Virus record (IMG/VR): IMGVR_UViG_2531839178_000008
Coordinates: 1-27,773 of that record
DNA: 27,773 nucleotides
Reading direction: 5' to 3' (one strand)
DNA from: a virus
Lineage: Duplodnaviria; Heunggongvirae; Uroviricota; Caudoviricetes
Every line of letters starts with the position of its first letter. The first letter of the stretch is position 1. Below the pieces are notes generated by a model. It was not told where the DNA came from, did not search any database, and saw only the letters and a list, made by a program, of their open reading frames with translations. Positions 9,907-19,418 of this stretch are shown in pieces. Position numbers and translations under genes: made by a program.

Positions 9907-10206
9907 ATGGAACAAACAAGTTACAGCAAACTATCACAGCGCGACGTTGATCGTGCAGAAACAGATTTACTCATCAACCTGTCAACGCTTACCCAGCGCG
10001 GTCTGGCAAAGATGATTGGCTGTCATGAATCGAAGATAAGCAGAACGGACTGGAGGTTTATTGCTTCGGTCTTGTGTGCTTTCGGAATGGCATCAGACAT
10101 CAGTCCGATTAGCAGGGCTTTTAAGTATGCGATTGATGGACTCACCAATAAAAAACGCCCGGTGTGCAAGACCGAGCGTTCTGAACAAATCCAGATGGAA
10201 TTTTAA
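9907..10206 (+). CDS. cII: cII-like transcriptional activator
   Basis: C-terminus ...GLTNKKRPVCKTERSEQIQMEF matches the lambda cII tail as recalled; position after cro and nutR. Confidence 0.8.
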   Translation: MEQTSYSKLSQRDVDRAETDLLINLSTLTQRGLAKMIGCHESKISRTDWRFIASVLCAFGMASDISPISRAFKYAIDGLTNKKRPVCKTERSEQIQMEF

Positions 10207-10228: not shown

Positions 10229-10372
10229 ATGCGAAAAACGCAGGAAAATAAACGCGTTAATCACCGAAAAGATGTGCTACGTGACCAGTTTTATCAGGGG
10301 GTTAATCCAGAAATAGCTGTGCCACTGAGAGAAATACTTAACAGGTACAAAACTTCGGAGAAGTCAAAATGA
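10229..10372 (+). CDS. small hypothetical protein (47 aa)
   Basis: ATG 10229 with GAGG upstream; stop overlaps the next start (ATGA). Confidence 0.4.
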   Translation: MRKTQENKRVNHRKDVLRDQFYQGVNPEIAVPLREILNRYKTSEKSK

Positions 10373-11121
10373 GCATGAATCTTATGGCTAAGGCCATGAA
10401 TATAAAGGTTGGCAACCCACTGAGAAAACTGATTCTGATTAAACTTGCCGATAACGCCAATGATAATGGCGAATGCTGGCCTTCATATCAACATGTCGCT
10501 GACCAGTGTGAGGTGAGCAGATCGACAGTAAAAAGTCACATTAGGGCACTGGAAGAGATGGGGCTTTTGAAAAGGGAATGCAGAAGAAAAGGAGAGCTTA
10601 ACCAGTCAAACGTTTTTTATCTGACGCTGGATAATGCACAACAAATCCCACCAGAATCAGGTGGGGCAGGAGCTGCCCGGGGTGGGGCAGGAGCTGCCCC
10701 CAGAACCTATCACTCTTTTGAACCAGTCAATGAACCTAAAAACATTATGTTCGAACATGTCCGAACGGAGTGTGAAAAAACTCCTGACCGTCACGAAGAA
10801 ACCGACAAGGCATTCGAGGAAATATTCTGGTGTGCAGGCATGCGGAAAGCCGGGAAGAAAAACGCAGCTTCGGCATTCAGAACACAGTTCAGGGAATGGC
10901 GTAAAACTACCAGGGGGACGGCAAGCGAGTTTGCCACGATGCTGGCAGACGATATTGCATGCAGGAATGGTAAGCAGTTCGGATTCGACAGGTTGTTACC
11001 GTCGAGCTACCTGAACGGTCAGCGCTGGAACGACGAGAAGCCAGAAACCATTCAACCACAATCCAGACCATCATCCGCAATTACCGTATCGAAAACTGGC
11101 TACGTGTTTTTCGACAGGTGA
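10369..11121 (+). CDS. replication initiation protein (O-like, winged-helix N-terminal domain)
   Basis: N-terminal HTH-like segment (NPLRKLILIKLADNANDNGECWPSYQHVADQCEVSRSTVKSHIRALEEMGLLKR) of the type found in phage replication initiators; internal iteron-like repeat; position after cII. Confidence 0.6.
   Translation: MSMNLMAKAMNIKVGNPLRKLILIKLADNANDNGECWPSYQHVADQCEVSRSTVKSHIRALEEMGLLKRECRRKGELNQSNVFYLTLDNAQQIPPESGGAGAARGGAGAAPRTYHSFEPVNEPKNIMFEHVRTECEKTPDRHEETDKAFEEIFWCAGMRKAGKKNAASAFRTQFREWRKTTRGTASEFATMLADDIACRNGKQFGFDRLLPSSYLNGQRWNDEKPETIQPQSRPSSAITVSKTGYVFFDR
10660..10701. repeat. two tandem 21-bp repeats with internal dyad symmetry (candidate origin iterons)
   Basis: GGTGGGGCAGGAGCTGCCC occurs at 10660..10678 and 10681..10699, each with inverted GGGCAG/CTGCCC arms, followed by an AT-richer stretch; encodes a GGAGAAR/GGAGAAP repeat. 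Confidence 0.6.
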
Positions 11122-11124
11122 ACC

Positions 11125-11232
11125 ATGAAATCAAAAATCAAATCGCTACTGGTCGCTGGTTATAACCACGGCTGGTTAAGTATTTCGTTTGTCGATTTCT
11201 GGTTTAAAAATCTCAATCTGAGGGAATCATGA
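11125..11232 (+). CDS. small hydrophobic ORF (35 aa) coupled to the primase-helicase start
   Basis: ATG 11125 four nt after the upstream stop; stop TGA overlaps the primase-helicase ATG; MKSKIKSLLVAGYNHGWLSISFVDFWFKNLNLRES. Confidence 0.3.
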   Translation: MKSKIKSLLVAGYNHGWLSISFVDFWFKNLNLRES

Positions 11233-14135
11233 GGCCAAGTGAACTTAGCGACCTGCTTTGGGCGCAGGTTGACAGGGTGGCTCCGCACCTGTTGCCAAAT
11301 GGCAAGAAAGAGGGGCATGAGTGGGTTGCCGGTAACGTCAACGGTGACAAGGGAAACAGCCTTAAGGTCAACCTTAGCGGCAAGAAAAAATGGGCTGATT
11401 TCGCTGAGGGAGACGGCGGTGACATGCTTGATTTGTGGATGGCATGTCGTGGAATTAACCTGCATCAGGCTATGCAGGAAGCGAAAGCATTTCTCGGTAT
11501 CAAGGATGACGATCACCATTTCGATGCCAAACGTGAGAAGAAATTCTCCAGACCTGATCGCAAGAAAATCGCCCACTACGTTACCAGAACAGAATCCCAT
11601 CTTGAGTACCTGCAATCGCGTGGCATATCGCCAGAAGTCGTAAAGCGCTACGAGGTTGTCAGCGGCAAGGTGTGGAATGGAGAACGAGAACTGGATGCTC
11701 TGGTGCTTCCGTACAAACGCGATGGTGAGTTGTTGCAGGTCAAGCGAATCAGCACTGAGCGCCCGGACGGGAAGAAAGTCATTATGGCAGAAGGTGATTG
11801 CGAACCTTGCCTGTTCGGATGGCAGGCTCTGGACGCTGGCGTGAGGGCGGTTGTGCTTTGCGAAGGCGAAATTGATTGTATGAGCTATGCGCAATACGGC
11901 ATCTCGGCGTTATCCGTGCCGTTTGGTGGCGGGAAAGGCGCTAAGCAACAGTGGATTGAGTTTGAGTATCACAACCTCGACAGGTTTGAGGAAATATTCA
12001 TCTCGATGGACGTTGATGATGTTGGTCGTGAAGCCGCAAGGGAAATCGCAAGCCGACTCGGTGAACATCGTTGCCGTCTTGTTACTCTGCCGTACAAAGA
12101 CATCAACGAATGCCTGATGAACGGTGTTACCGAGGATGAAATCTGGCAGTACATCGGCACGGCATCCTACTTTGATCCTGAAGAACTCTACAGCGCGCGA
12201 GAGTTTTACCAGGACACTATCAACGCTTTCTACAGCAAGCAGCAGTATCTGTTTAATCCACCGTGGGAATCTCTGGCAGATAAATTCCAGTTCCGTGAGG
12301 CCGAGTTGACGCTGGTCAATGGTGTGAACGGTCACGGAAAGGCATGCCCACTGAATGAGCCTATTCTTTTAGCTGATGGGACATGGACTACTCACGGGAA
12401 TGTAAAAATTGGCGATCAGGTGGCGTCAGTAGACGGCAATCCGTCAACTGTCACTGGGATATTCCCGCAGGGTGTTAGAGATGTTTACCGAGTCACATTT
12501 GAAGATGGTCGTTATGTTGATTGCGCAGGCGATCACCTATGGGAGGTCACTAGTCGTGGATTCACGAAAGGCGAGAAACGCCGCGTGATAGATACCTTCG
12601 GGTTGAAGCGGTTGAGTGAAACGAAGAGGCACAAAAATGGCGTTAGGATTCCTGAAATAACTGGTGACTTTGGCGACCACTCAGAGCCATTAGCATGGGT
12701 TATCGGCTCCCTTCTCGGGGATGGTAGTCTTAGCAATGGGAGCGTGAAGTTTTCAAACGTCGAGCCATACATGATCGAGCGTATGAAGGCTGAACTGCCT
12801 GATTACAACTTCTCTGGAGATGGTAAGGACTGGCTGATATCAACGGCGCGTGGTCAGGTAAATCCACTCATGGAGACCCTGCGAGGTTATGGACTAATGG
12901 GGTGCACAGCAAAAAACAAATTCATCCCTCGTGTGTTTTTTTCCGCAAATAAATCAACGCGTATAGGCATGCTGTGTGGTCTGCTTGAAACGGATGGGTA
13001 TGTCGAGAAGGATGGAACGCTTGTTTTTTCCTCAGCAAGTGAAGAACTGCGCAATGGGGTTGTTCAACTGGTTAACTCACTCGGCGGGTCATGCCGGACG
13101 CGAGTTAAAACTGGCGTGACATACACATACAAGGACGATAAGCGGCATGGGATGGATTCATACGAGGCAAGAATCAGACTGACAAGAGAAATCAGGGAGG
13201 CCATCCGTTCACCACGACTCAATGGCAGATTAACTGCGCATCGATTCGAGGGCTGTGGGGTATTCGTCAGGAATGTTGAAAAAATCGGCAATGCAGAATG
13301 CTTGTGTATTATGGTCGATCACCCTCGCCACCTGTATGTAACCAGGGGATATGTGGCGACGCATAACACCGAGGTTGTCGGGCATATGGCACTTGAGGCA
13401 ATGCGTCAGGGTGTGAAGACGTGCATCGCGTCACTTGAGCTGAAGCCTGGTATTCTCCTTAAGCGCCTTACCCGTCAGGCGACGTGCTGCAAGATTCCGC
13501 CAGTGCTGGAAATTGACTCTGCATTTAAATTTTATGACGAAAGACTTTGGGTGTTTGGCCTGACCGGAACGGCGAAAGCCGACAGGCTGATCGAAATATT
13601 CGACTACGCTCGCCGCCGATACGGGATCCAGTTATTCATCATCGACAGCCTGATGAAATGTGGCATAGGCGACGATGACTATAACGGGCAGAAGGCGTTT
13701 GTTGACTCGATTTGCGACTTCAAAAACAAAACAAACTCCCACGTCATTCTCGTTACTCACTCGCGAAAAGGAGACAGCGAAGAAAAACCAACCGGGAAAA
13801 TGGACGTAAAAGGCTCTGGAGCGATAACAGACCTGACAGACAACCTTTTCATCATCTGGCGTAACAAGGCTCGCGAGAGAGCGTTACAGAGAGTTCAGAG
13901 TGGTGAAAAGATGTCAGAGAAGGACGAACAGCTACTGGCATCTCCGGCATCTGTTTTAATGCTTGAAAAACAACGTAACGGCGAAGGTTGGGAAGGTGGT
14001 GTCCCGTTGTTCCTTGACGAGCAATCGCACCAGTTCCTGCAACTTGAATCAGGATCGCCATATAGCTACATCGCCAATATGCCGAAATCGGAATATGACG
14101 AGGCGTGGCGACAGGAAAACGTGACGGAGTATTAA
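11229..14135 (+). CDS. primase-helicase (Toprim primase plus gp4/DnaB-like SF4 helicase) containing an intein
   Basis: Toprim motif (VVLCEGEIDCMSYA), P-loop GVNGHGKA interrupted, Walker B-like IQLFIIDSLMK after the insert; 968-aa ORF with GAGGG ribosome-binding site. Confidence 0.85.
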   Translation: MRPSELSDLLWAQVDRVAPHLLPNGKKEGHEWVAGNVNGDKGNSLKVNLSGKKKWADFAEGDGGDMLDLWMACRGINLHQAMQEAKAFLGIKDDDHHFDAKREKKFSRPDRKKIAHYVTRTESHLEYLQSRGISPEVVKRYEVVSGKVWNGERELDALVLPYKRDGELLQVKRISTERPDGKKVIMAEGDCEPCLFGWQALDAGVRAVVLCEGEIDCMSYAQYGISALSVPFGGGKGAKQQWIEFEYHNLDRFEEIFISMDVDDVGREAAREIASRLGEHRCRLVTLPYKDINECLMNGVTEDEIWQYIGTASYFDPEELYSAREFYQDTINAFYSKQQYLFNPPWESLADKFQFREAELTLVNGVNGHGKACPLNEPILLADGTWTTHGNVKIGDQVASVDGNPSTVTGIFPQGVRDVYRVTFEDGRYVDCAGDHLWEVTSRGFTKGEKRRVIDTFGLKRLSETKRHKNGVRIPEITGDFGDHSEPLAWVIGSLLGDGSLSNGSVKFSNVEPYMIERMKAELPDYNFSGDGKDWLISTARGQVNPLMETLRGYGLMGCTAKNKFIPRVFFSANKSTRIGMLCGLLETDGYVEKDGTLVFSSASEELRNGVVQLVNSLGGSCRTRVKTGVTYTYKDDKRHGMDSYEARIRLTREIREAIRSPRLNGRLTAHRFEGCGVFVRNVEKIGNAECLCIMVDHPRHLYVTRGYVATHNTEVVGHMALEAMRQGVKTCIASLELKPGILLKRLTRQATCCKIPPVLEIDSAFKFYDERLWVFGLTGTAKADRLIEIFDYARRRYGIQLFIIDSLMKCGIGDDDYNGQKAFVDSICDFKNKTNSHVILVTHSRKGDSEEKPTGKMDVKGSGAITDLTDNLFIIWRNKARERALQRVQSGEKMSEKDEQLLASPASVLMLEKQRNGEGWEGGVPLFLDEQSHQFLQLESGSPYSYIANMPKSEYDEAWRQENVTEY
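12345..13367 (+). mobile_element. intein (341 aa) with a LAGLIDADG homing-endonuclease domain, inserted at the helicase P-loop
   Basis: Starts at Cys (CPLNEPILLADG...IGDQV...DG, block A), block B His (AGDHLWEV), two LAGLIDADG motifs (WVIGSLLGDGSL and IGMLCGLLETDGYV), blocks F/G (CLCIMVDHPRHLYV...GYVATHN) ending in His-Asn, followed by Thr as +1. Confidence 0.8.
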
Positions 14136-14213
14136 ATGACCATCTACATCACTGAGCTTGTAACAGGCCTGCTGGTAATCGCAGGCCTTTTTATTTGGGG
14201 GAGAGGGAAGTGA
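14136..14213 (+). CDS. small hydrophobic ORF (25 aa)
   Basis: ATG immediately after the primase-helicase stop; MTIYITELVTGLLVIAGLFIWGRGK, a single predicted transmembrane helix. Confidence 0.25.
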   Translation: MTIYITELVTGLLVIAGLFIWGRGK

Positions 14214-14488
14214 ACGATAGCTACCGACAGTTTGAAAACTGGTGGTCAAAAGACAAAAGCCAGTTCACAGGAGACGATGAATTAAAAGAGTTTGCCTGGG
14301 TGATATGGCAGGCATCGCGAGCAGCTATTGAACTGGATATCGACTGGCCCGAATCGAATGACGACTTTTGGAAAGATGGTGAAGAAGGTGCTTATGCGAT
14401 GGGTTATGAGGATGGGCGTGACAAAACGGTAATTGCAGTAATGAAAGCTATCAGAGCCGCTGGAATTAAAGAGAAGAATTTTCGATGA
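14210..14488 (+). CDS. hypothetical nin-region protein
   Basis: GTG at 14210 with GGGAGAGGG upstream preferred over the listed TTG; acidic Trp-rich product; stop overlaps the NinB start. Confidence 0.45.
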   Translation: MNDSYRQFENWWSKDKSQFTGDDELKEFAWVIWQASRAAIELDIDWPESNDDFWKDGEEGAYAMGYEDGRDKTVIAVMKAIRAAGIKEKNFR

Positions 14489-14895
14489 AGCAAACAATCT
14501 TCCTCCGAACTAAGCAACAACAGCAAGCCGCAATAAATGCCATCCTCTCAACTCCTCTCGATAAAGACAAGCCAGTCACCATCCGCATTACTGACTACAA
14601 GCGAAATCTTGACCAGAACGCAAAATTTCACGCGATGCTGGCGGATATCGCTCGTCAGGTTCAATGGTGCGGCAAATGGTTAAAACCGGAACAATGGAAG
14701 GTTTTGTTGATCAGCGGTCATGCAGTGGCAACAAAACAGGAAGCTGATGTTTTGCCCGGGCTTGAAGGCGAATACGTCAACATTCGCGAAAGCAGCGCGC
14801 AGATGAGTGTGAAGCGTATGGCAAGTCTGATTGAGTACACGACAGCATGGGCTATTGGTCAGGGTGTCAGATTTACCGACAGGAGGTACGAATGA
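14485..14895 (+). CDS. ninB: NinB (Orf-family recombination mediator)
   Basis: Conserved NinB pattern (..[27 protein letters not shown]..) and position after the replication genes. Confidence 0.8.
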
Positions 14896-15109: not shown

Positions 15110-15418
15110 TTAAACGAAGCGGATCTGGAGTTTTTTTCCAGTAGCGCGGGCGAATTTTTTTAGGGTGGCAAATGATGGGCCGCTGATACCTGATGCGAGA
15201 TTACTTTCCATTCTGGTGATCGCGGTCGCTTTTGTTCCCATTCGCTCGGCAACTTCAGCCTGAGTTAAGCCAGCTTCTTTGCGTGCTGCCAGCATTTCAT
15301 CAAGCAGTGCGAATTCGTCAGCGATAGCGTCGTATTCTGCTTTAAAAGCCGGGTCTTCCATCCATTTGGCTGCCATTTCGTCGTGTGTCATGGTGGGGAG
15401 AGTGCGTTTACCAGTCAT
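15110..15418 (-). CDS. HigA-family antitoxin (XRE-type HTH)
   Basis: ATG 15418 with AAGGAGG 6 nt upstream; HTH segment AGLTQAEVAERMGTKATAITRMESNLASG; overlaps the toxin 3' end by 11 nt. Confidence 0.8.
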   Translation of the reverse strand: MTGKRTLPTMTHDEMAAKWMEDPAFKAEYDAIADEFALLDEMLAARKEAGLTQAEVAERMGTKATAITRMESNLASGISGPSFATLKKFARATGKKLQIRFV

Positions 15419-15737
15419 GCTTAACCTCCTTCATTCTGGTTTCAGCTTTCTTGCGTTCGGCTGGCGGTGTTTTCTGCGTTTTCTTTACAAAACTATGCAG
15501 CATGATGATGCGTTTCCCTGTCAGAGTGCAGTAAAAAACACGCGCGATCCCATCGTTGCCTTTAATTCTGAGTTCGAAAAGCCCGTCACCAAAGGCGCTG
15601 GTGTGAGGTTCTCCGAGATTGCTGCCATATATCTTCATACGTTCAACGAGATGTTGGTATCGGGCACGCATACTCAATGGAAGCCGATCGACTTCCAGCC
15701 TTACATCTTCACTGTAGTATTCGATAGTGTAGTTCAT
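15408..15737 (-). CDS. Gp49-like / HigB-family (RelE/ParE superfamily) toxin
   Basis: MNYTIEYYSEDVRLEVDRLP...GDGLFELRIKGNDGIARVFYCTL...IIMLHSFVKKTQKTPPAERKKAE matches the addiction-module killer pattern; toxin precedes antitoxin. Start could also be the ATG at 15749. Confidence 0.8.
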   Translation of the reverse strand: MNYTIEYYSEDVRLEVDRLPLSMRARYQHLVERMKIYGSNLGEPHTSAFGDGLFELRIKGNDGIARVFYCTLTGKRIIMLHSFVKKTQKTPPAERKKAETRMKEVKHDW

Positions 15738-15872
15738 AGGTATCAACATAACAAAATCGTTATATGCATTCAAGGCCTGTAGTTGACGACAACACATATC
15801 CGGGGCTATATTCCTCACGCGCCAGCAAAATCTGGCGTCGGGATTGGAACCCCGGATATCGAAACGGTGCAT

Positions 15873-19262: not shown

Positions 19263-19337
19263 GGGTCAGTCGTATAAAGGTCATTACGGAAGGCTGTTAA
19301 CCTTCTTATCGTGGTTCGAGTCCACGCTGTCCCGCCA
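19263..19337 (+). tRNA. tRNA-like gene, anticodon GUU (Asn-like), atypical
   Basis: Canonical T arm CGTGG-TTCGAGT-CCACG, anticodon arm GAAGG-CTGTTAA-CCTTC, encoded CCA; but acceptor stem has a U-U mismatch and the D arm is only 3 bp. Confidence 0.4.
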
Positions 19338-19342
19338 AACAT

Positions 19343-19418
19343 GCTGGTTTAGCTCCAATGGTAGAGCAGTCGCCTTGTAAGCGAATGGGTAGCGGTTCAA
19401 GTCCGTTAACCAGCACCA
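19343..19418 (+). tRNA. tRNA, anticodon UGU (Thr)
   Basis: Manual fold: acceptor GCTGGTT/AACCAGC, D arm GCTC-CAATGGTA-GAGC, anticodon loop CTTGTAA, variable TGGGT, T arm AGCGG-TTCAAGT-CCGTT, discriminator A, encoded CCA; 76 nt. Confidence 0.65.

Follow-up and report, generated by a model that had tools for sequence, protein, structure and literature searches.

Where does the insert that splits the P-loop of a phage primase-helicase begin and end, and to which kind of element does it belong? The question is raised by a gene carried by IMG/VR virus record IMGVR_UViG_2531839178_000008 (Caudoviricetes), positions 1 to 27,773 of which form the window analyzed here (27,773 nucleotides in all). The gene (11229..14135; it lies, as all its parts described below, on the + strand) is a single uninterrupted open reading frame (ORF), and encodes a 968-residue precursor, a bifunctional primase-helicase of the T7 gp4 type hosting an intein. 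In an earlier annotation made on the letters alone, hereafter the sequence-only reading, the insert had been described as a 341-residue intein, starting with a nucleophilic cysteine (Cys1) at 12345, and a splice product of 627 residues had been predicted. According to the comparisons reported here, the stretch 12342..13367 is very probably a 342-residue class 3 intein, with an embedded homing endonuclease of the double-motif LAGLIDADG type, as judged from sequence relatives and from a structural model.

Boundaries of the insert

Two forms of the gene have been identified by megablast, a filled form of 2,907 bp and an empty form of 1,881 bp. In the alleles read, the difference measures 1,026 bp, which corresponds to 342 codons, not to 341. 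Seven intein-free alleles have been compared: those of phages mEp043, Sf101 and epsilon34, three copies from prophages in E. coli chromosomes, and one from a circular replicon of 39.9 kb that is annotated as a plasmid of E. coli. Their DNA identity ranges from 87 to 99%, the lowest value being that of the epsilon34 allele. All seven read CAC GGA AAA ACG GAG GTT (H-G-K-T-E-V) in protein and DNA alignments, and feature a canonical Walker A motif, GVNGHGKT. The intein-containing alleles (5/5) read AAG/AAA GCA/GCC TGC/TGT at the upstream junction, and CAT AAC ACC GAG at the downstream one. Since no residue is repeated at both ends, the limits of the insert are unambiguous.

The intein (12342..13367) extends from Ala1 to Asn342, and this exact segment is absent from each of the seven intein-free alleles. 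Ala1 (GCA) is the true first residue, and the cysteine (TGC, 12345-12347) is residue 2, the two codons spanning 12342..12347. The N-extein (11229..12341, residues 1-371) includes the Toprim primase and the start of the helicase domain; it ends with G-V-N-G-H-G-K371, and is collinear with the intein-free alleles through Lys371. The C-extein (13368..14135) opens with Thr+1 (ACC, 13368-13370), the Walker A Thr, and continues with the remaining helicase domain. Anatomy and boundaries are read directly from the alleles, as an in-frame insertion of 342 codons at a conserved site, exactly missing from collinear homologs.

Excision at Lys371|Ala372 is predicted to yield a 342-residue intein and a 626-residue helicase, with the same GKT P-loop found in the empty alleles. 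Excision between Ala and Cys would give a GKAT P-loop, with a one-residue insertion. Base-level positions in the sequence-only reading were accurate, as concerns the 968-residue ORF, the TGC codon and the His-Asn-Thr codons CAT AAC ACC at 13362-13370. Ends and product sizes were not: the insert had been placed one codon off, and the expected products of 341 and 627 residues are replaced by 342 and 626 on the ground of the intein-free alleles. That reading had rightly flagged "GKA" as odd, and had wondered about an unusual P-loop. The Ala after the P-loop Lys is intein residue 1, and the oddity is therefore resolved. The exteins join seamlessly in the intein-free comparison (GVNGHGK|TEVVG), as had been anticipated; gap-free homologs collinear through the region, named beforehand as the finding that would speak against an intein, were looked for, and the intein-free alleles show instead a clean gap exactly at the insertion.

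Deprived of the 342 residues, the host protein is, by its sequence matches, a T7 gp4-like primase-helicase. Toprim_2 is found by Pfam in the N-terminal part of the 968-residue protein (expectation value, E, 7.7e-12), and Toprim_2, AAA_25 and DnaB_C are all matched by the intein-free form. The intein-free homolog also matches T7 gp4 structures (5ikn/6n7i, E 2.7e-23), Twinkle (E 6.5e-14), and PHROG 239, 'DNA primase/helicase' (E 1.9e-171). A Toprim primase domain is fused to a RecA-type hexameric helicase domain, which carries a Walker A of the GxxxxGK[ST] type. In the T7 gp4 alignment the host GHGKT pairs with the Walker A GMGKS, and therefore the intein splits the catalytic Lys from the next Ser/Thr. 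The insert interrupts the Walker A motif, in agreement with the earlier suggestion that helicase activity should depend on splicing.

Class, endonuclease and fold

Class 3 inteins are defined by a residue 1 other than Cys, Ser or Thr, by a co-varying triplet (WCT) made by Trp at block B:12, Cys at F:4 and Thr at G:5, and by Thr or Ser at position +1; the study which also defined the role of the block F:4 Cys places nearly all such inteins in ATPases of the helicase type, for the most part in the P-loop (Tori et al. 2010, PMC2807308). The same triplet positions have been given by Kelley et al. (2016, PMC5050341), for whom an insertion at Lys|Thr is the "classic" one among P-loop inteins. Class 3 inteins reportedly form a monophyletic group that stems from phages.

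All these marks are found in the insert. Block B features His65-Leu-Trp67 (12534..12542), which provides the B:10 His (12534-12536) and the class 3 Trp in B:12. Cys322 (TGT, 13305..13307), in block F:4, is part of the motif E-C-L-C-I-M-V, and is the predicted initiating nucleophile of class 3 splicing. Block G includes Thr340-His341-Asn342 (13359..13367), in which the class 3 Thr is followed by the penultimate His and then by the terminal Asn. The WCT triplet corresponds to Trp67/Cys322/Thr340, residue 1 is Ala rather than Cys, Ser or Thr, and Thr is found at +1. A nucleophile at position 1, as expected in class 1 inteins, is not found, the first inserted residue being Ala. Blocks A, B, F and G, along with the block B His and the terminal His-Asn followed by Thr+1, denote a HINT domain, and the fold matches intein structures. 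At the level of sequence, every character which defines class 3 is present. The nearest relatives also belong to class 3, as gauged from the best sequence matches of solved structure and from the triplet in relatives.

Conservation of the motifs is seen directly in 137 cluster representatives which span both junctions, found among the best 150 relatives. Gly in position -2 and Lys in position -1 are each conserved in 128/137. Residue 1 is Ala in 108 and Cys in 2; residue 2 is Gln in 104, Leu in 29, and Cys in none. The B:10 His, the B:12 Trp, the F:4 Cys and the G:6-7 His-Asn are invariant (137/137 each), and the G:5 Thr is found in 136. The +1 residue is Thr in 125 and Ser in 11. Ten phage relatives have been inspected, residing in primase-helicases, DnaB-type helicases, terminases and DarB-like ATPases. 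The H-x-W motif and the Cys are retained by every one of them, and the pattern GK|A...T-H/R-N|T/S is shared by nine.

The LAGLIDADG homing-endonuclease domain maps approximately to intein residues 100-300 (12639..13241, ends approximate), as indicated by Pfam, by the sequence match to PI-SceI, and by the fold. The first motif, LLGDG, includes Asp127 (12720-12722), the second, LETDG, Asp218 (12993-12995). The first acidic residue is Asp in 113/137 relatives and Asn in 19/137, the second is Asp in 136/137. In the window both Asp residues are present, as is the conserved Lys-x-x-Pro of block D, and the two motifs are set in a pseudo-dimeric alpha-beta fold. Pfam detects LAGLIDADG_3 in the insert above the cut-off (E 1.5e-8), and Hom_end is also matched inside it. 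In NCBIfam, only the intein portions of models of intein-containing DnaB, RecA, GyrA and similar proteins were matched. A phmmer search of 1.84 billion cluster representatives retrieved 16,547 matches at E<=1e-3 and 2,782 at E<=1e-30, the best full-length match having an E of 6.6e-97. The intein signal is far beyond chance, on the evidence of sequence and model.

The fold was examined in an AlphaFold model of the intein, built with 62 sequences (mean predicted local distance difference test score, pLDDT, 94.3; predicted template modeling score, pTM, 0.92). The model matches PI-SceI (E 6.6e-19, template modeling score 0.72), and also the TliVMA and PhoVMA inteins, PI-PfuI, I-DmoI and class 3 mini-inteins. 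The LAGLIDADG_3 and phmmer matches, the modeled fold and the seven intein-free alleles all bear out the view, already expressed in the sequence-only reading, of a full-length intein with a LAGLIDADG endonuclease lodged in the P-loop; the block B His and the two LAGLIDADG motifs listed there correspond to His65, LLGDG and LETDG.

The following route is proposed by homology to characterized class 3 inteins, the endonuclease activity being deduced in the same way. The precursor would be ATPase-dead, unable to bind or hydrolyse nucleoside triphosphates because its P-loop is split. Cys322, helped by His65, Trp67 and Thr340, would attack the Lys371-Ala372 bond, leading to a thioester-branched intermediate. 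The N-extein would be transferred by transesterification to the Thr+1 hydroxyl, Asn342 would cyclise and free the intein, and an O-N shift would give the 626-residue enzyme, with a native GKT P-loop and a junction identical to that of the intein-free alleles. Cys2 would not act as splice nucleophile. The predicted endonuclease of the free intein would cut the conserved empty site GTGAACGGTCACGGAAAA|ACGGAGGTTGTCGGGCATATGG of intein-free alleles (ACGGAGG... after the insertion point) when phages co-infect a cell or a phage meets a prophage, and the intein would be copied in by repair. Over the 50 bp around this site, the E. coli and the 87%-identical epsilon34 alleles do not differ.

Cys2 adjoins the scissile Lys371-Ala372 bond, at a position in which relatives have no Cys. 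Both Ala1 and Cys2 are kept in phiKp_30 despite synonymous changes (GCC TGT), and are also found in the 6%-diverged Salmonella allele P0161. By analogy, Cys2 might be a functional addition, serving either as a disulfide partner of Cys322 in redox-gated splicing or as a back-up nucleophile, an idea regarded as very doubtful. Redox gating via a disulfide which involves the catalytic Cys is known from M. smegmatis, in the class 3 intein of the DnaB P-loop. Induction of Shiga toxin (Stx) phages is linked to oxidative and DNA-damage stress. If the idea were true, replication of Stx phages, and with it toxin gene dosage, would be subject to a post-translational checkpoint in the form of a redox-gated primase-helicase.

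Distribution, maintenance and rival explanations

The presence/absence polymorphism of the intein is directly observed. Filled alleles, 99-99.9% identical, reside in phages Min27 and phi24B, in several Stx2a phages, and in Klebsiella phage phiKp_30; empty alleles are found in phages mEp043, Sf101, APC_JM3.2, epsilon34, ES18 and g341c. Among 5,426 complete E. coli genomes, 79 (1.5%) carry the filled allele, and about 217 more match some 65% of the gene only, as an empty allele would. In Salmonella enterica the filled allele P0161 (968 residues) has exteins of the epsilon34 type, identical at 615/626 positions to epsilon34 and at 589/626 to the window. Its intein is 94% identical to that of the window (321/342), and keeps Ala1, Cys2, His65, Trp67, Asp127, Asp218, Cys322 and Thr-His-Asn. 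Filled and empty alleles coexist on near-identical exteins in both gene lineages, at 622/626 in E. coli and 615/626 in Salmonella. The remark that inteins are uncommon in enterobacterial prophages was thus overstated, given the 79 genomes above and a paralogous intein found in 30 more.

Filled alleles span several extein haplotypes, and the window/FDAARGOS_944, Min27/O111 and phiKp_30 types differ at many sites. Each extein variant of the filled alleles also turns up in an allele without the intein. In the flanks, a single fixed difference separates the two forms: the +1 codon is ACC in the filled (5/5) and ACG in the empty (7/7) alleles; the Lys codon is AAG in 4/5 filled alleles. An extended co-conversion tract was looked for in the flanks of these five filled and seven empty alleles, and none was seen. 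The GC content of the intein (0.49-0.52) is not different from that of the flanks, and composition gives no sign of recent foreign origin.

Between E. coli-type and Salmonella-type alleles the amino acid divergence is 6.1% in the intein, 5.9% (37/626) in the exteins, and 11/201 in the endonuclease region, at a gene DNA divergence of about 13%. Protein divergence of about 6% against DNA divergence of about 13% therefore indicates, as far as sequence comparison goes, that purifying selection acts on the intein, endonuclease included. The ratio of non-synonymous to synonymous substitution rates (dN/dS) of the intein is about 0.16 in the comparison of the window to phiKp_30. The ORF is also listed, among the signs of maintenance, as intact in the isolated phages Min27, phi24B and phiKp_30; this and the conservation suggest that splicing does take place. 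Maintenance and distribution patterns fit a homing cycle. Recent mobility, as proposed in the sequence-only reading, is plausible, with the polymorphism on near-identical exteins in two lineages and the conserved endonuclease domain speaking for it; this support is indirect.

The copy of the gene in the Min27 GenBank record (EU311208.1 14575-17483) measures 2,909 rather than 2,907 nucleotides, with a frame shift near codon 833, and is annotated as two coding sequences, 'replication protein P' and 'putative DNA primase'. The 2 extra nucleotides probably reflect either an error in sequencing or a frameshift truly present in the isolate. The phiKp_30 and window inteins differ at 28 nucleotides, 12 of which fall in the first 14 codons (12347..12382 in the window), and the synonymous divergence (dS) is 0.18 at the splicing ends and 0.014 in the endonuclease region. 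This pattern suggests a mosaic or recombinant intein.

A paralogous class 3 intein marks the P-loop of a DnaB-type helicase in other Stx2a phages (LC487997.1 13313-15706; intein at locus 1501-2517). It shares 50% amino acid identity with the intein in the window, and has the junctions ARPGMGK|AMALSEG...VTHN|TEL. The 30 complete E. coli genomes (of 5,426) in which it was identified are additional to the 79 mentioned above. RefSeq gives its gene two DnaB-domain names, and no intein label.

Three other explanations have been weighed. A class 1 intein of 341 residues, with Cys1 at 12345, would have the cysteine attack the Ala-Cys bond and leave GVNGHGK-A-TEVV. The cysteine adjoins the junction and precedes a stretch resembling block A; phiKp_30 and the Salmonella variants retain this cysteine, and for some WCT inteins the limits have been set with Cys or Ser as residue 1 (Tori et al. 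2010, PMC2807308). In contrast, all seven intein-free alleles read GK|T, without Ala, and the product would gain one residue between the Walker A Lys and Thr. Ala follows GK in nine of ten phage relatives and in the 108 cluster representatives counted above, and Gln or Leu occupies position 2 in 133 of the 137. Only if Ala is counted as residue 1 does the block A Gly lie at the same distance from it (13 residues) as in the relatives, and B:7 is Ala instead of Thr as F:4 is Cys instead of Asp, a class 3 and not a class 1 pattern. The Cys1 model, rejected on the empty alleles and on the register and class 3 motifs of relatives, is extremely unlikely. A decayed, non-splicing intein, in a dead gene of a defective prophage with helicase function lost or supplied elsewhere, would be in keeping with the many Shigella flexneri copies which are truncated fragments, with the ShP-Sfv primase inteins, partial and ending before block F (Tori et al. 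2010, PMC2807308), and with the class 3-like intein Arth_1007, a proven pseudogene; in the closest genome, FDAARGOS_944, the neighboring initiator gene is moreover split by an insertion sequence (IS). In the window, however, the 968-codon ORF is uninterrupted, all splicing and endonuclease catalytic residues are present, and the upstream initiator gene is intact. The gene is also the sole primase-helicase gene in the replication-module stretches examined of Min27 and phiKp_30, the allele is found in phi24B too, and the similar divergence of intein and exteins at about 13% gene DNA divergence speaks for purifying selection. The pseudogene reading has been rejected on the intact ORF, the retained catalytic residues and the purifying selection, and is held to be highly improbable.

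More credit, though still rather little, is given to a splicing class 3 intein in which the endonuclease is inactive, and which owes its patchy spread not to homing but to replication-module exchange and occasional precise loss. The intein does move with a mosaic replication module across unrelated phage backbones, those of Traversvirus Stx phages, of Lederbergvirus phiKp_30 and of the lambdoid prophage of the window. The +1 codon is the sole fixed flank difference, with no long co-conversion tract visible, and the Asn found at the first acidic position in 19 of the relatives tells that inactive family members occur. Against this, both LAGLIDADG Asp residues and the block D Lys-x-x-Pro are in place, the endonuclease region is conserved like the exteins between E. 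coli-type and Salmonella-type alleles, filled and empty forms coexist on near-identical exteins, and the 50 bp round the empty site are unchanged even in the epsilon34 allele. An inactive endonuclease is therefore seen as unlikely. Some points weigh against a class 3 intein with an embedded homing endonuclease, the preferred reading. Splicing, the branched intermediate and DNA cleavage are predictions for this intein, made by homology. Hom_end_hint scores 25.5 bits, below the Pfam gathering cut-off of 32.1, and HINT membership therefore rests on homolog searches and fold. The tenth phage relative, mycobacteriophage ScottMcG gp208, reads LKSL-AC at the junction (...L-A-C-S-T-P). The dN/dS of the endonuclease domain, window to phiKp_30, is based on 4 differences, too few when taken alone, and the several extein haplotypes could reflect flank recombination or module exchange, not homing.

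Replication module and relation to known inteins

The setting of the gene is a lambdoid replication module. CII (9907..10206) and an HTH_36 replication initiator, intact in the window (10369..11121), lie upstream of the primase-helicase; an ORF without Pfam match (14195..14488) and NinB (14485..14895) follow. In the 99.9%-identical E. coli FDAARGOS_944 prophage, the HTH_36 initiator (locus 11690..13893) is split by ISEc20, an IS of the IS110 family. A two-gene pair, 15110..15872 (- strand), includes a toxin of the Gp49 family (HigB-like; 15408..15872, E 1.9e-25) and an HTH_3 antitoxin-like protein (15110..15418). A different HigA/RelE pair resides at the same site in the closely related FDAARGOS_944 prophage, and the nin region seems to have had its toxin-antitoxin cassette swapped. 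Genes for tRNA-Asn (GTT) and tRNA-Thr (TGT), as given by the annotation of the FDAARGOS_944 prophage, are located at 19263..19418 (+), downstream of the antiterminator gene.

The exact 968-residue protein is found in NCBI as a MULTISPECIES Enterobacteriaceae entry, and GenBank/RefSeq gene names are "toprim domain-containing protein", "replication protein P" and "hypothetical protein". The protein cluster counts 1,494 members; neither the names of the 15 listed ones nor any public gene name encountered mentions an intein. Phage Min27 carries the full gene at 99.1% identity, and Shigella flexneri fragments are 100% identical to intein residues 35-237 (P0001). InBase presumably also holds an entry for the Min27 copy, 'EP-Min27 Primase'. 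A literature search on this primase intein (Min27, Shiga toxin prophage) turned up only Tori et al. 2010, and no dedicated paper.

The intein is real, ordinary for its class, and already known, a typical class 3 P-loop intein of phage origin; related partial primase inteins of Shigella prophages were catalogued by 2009. Existing knowledge on intein biology is not changed. The main value lies in the corrected junction, since a naive Cys1 assignment gives a broken GKAT P-loop, the class 3 assignment a native GKT. According to Kelley et al. (2016, PMC5050341), E. coli and Salmonella seem to lack inteins; prophages of both do carry them, and the allele is found also in Stx2a phages. Natural pairs of filled and empty alleles, with exteins 99% identical, are available in tractable lambdoid coliphages (mEp043 and Sf101 vs Min27 and phi24B), and would lend themselves to studying class 3 splicing and intein homing in vivo.

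Several known inteins resemble the one in the window. The DnaB intein of mycobacteriophage Bethlehem (MP-Be DnaB), the prototype of class 3 (Tori et al. 2010, PMC2807308), resides likewise in a phage helicase, and shares the non-nucleophilic residue 1, Thr+1, about the same length, and the helicase/P-loop setting typical of the class. Its WCT triplet lies at near-identical positions, and by position Cys320/Thr339/His340/Asn341 correspond to Cys322/Thr340/His341/Asn342 in the window. The hosts differ, an actinophage DnaB in one case, the gp4-like primase-helicase of an enterobacterial lambdoid prophage in the other. The two best sequence matches among solved structures are both MchDnaB1, a class 3 intein (6rix, E 2.3e-9; 6riy, E 9.3e-9). 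Msm DnaBi1 (6bs8), a class 3 intein located in a DnaB P-loop, is matched at E 1.4e-6, its residues 4-69 aligning to residues 4-69, with Trp67 on Trp67. The motifs HxW, C-[IV]-x-V and THN are aligned with 6rix, 6riy and 6bs8, and the catalytic Cys of MchDnaB1 falls on Cys322 (lCimV / rCveV). MchDnaB1 and DnaBi1 are mini-inteins without endonuclease, whereas the intein in the window keeps a full LAGLIDADG domain. Cys48, the redox partner in DnaBi1, has no demonstrated counterpart in it.

Also related are the Primase inteins ShP-Sfv-2a-2457T-n and ShP-Sfv-2a-301-n (InBase, cited in PMC2807308), which belong to Shigella flexneri prophages and also lack an N-terminal nucleophile. They are described as partial, ending before block F; in contrast, the copy in the window is complete. 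The same insertion point, between the Walker A Lys and the nucleophilic Thr, is used by the mycobacteriophage TerL1-a P-loop inteins (PMC5050341). The inteins in the terminases of Kanye, YungMoney and TaPaz can be aligned with the window intein from one end to the other, and share GK|A...T-H/R-N|T/S; hosts are terminases, not primase-helicases, and identity is 25-29%. PI-SceI, the yeast VMA1 intein, is the best structural match for the architecture made by HINT and LAGLIDADG domains, and its endonuclease region is matched also by sequence (E 8e-8). It differs from the intein in the window in being a class 1 element (Cys1, no WCT triplet), larger, hosted by a eukaryote, and about 15% identical in sequence.

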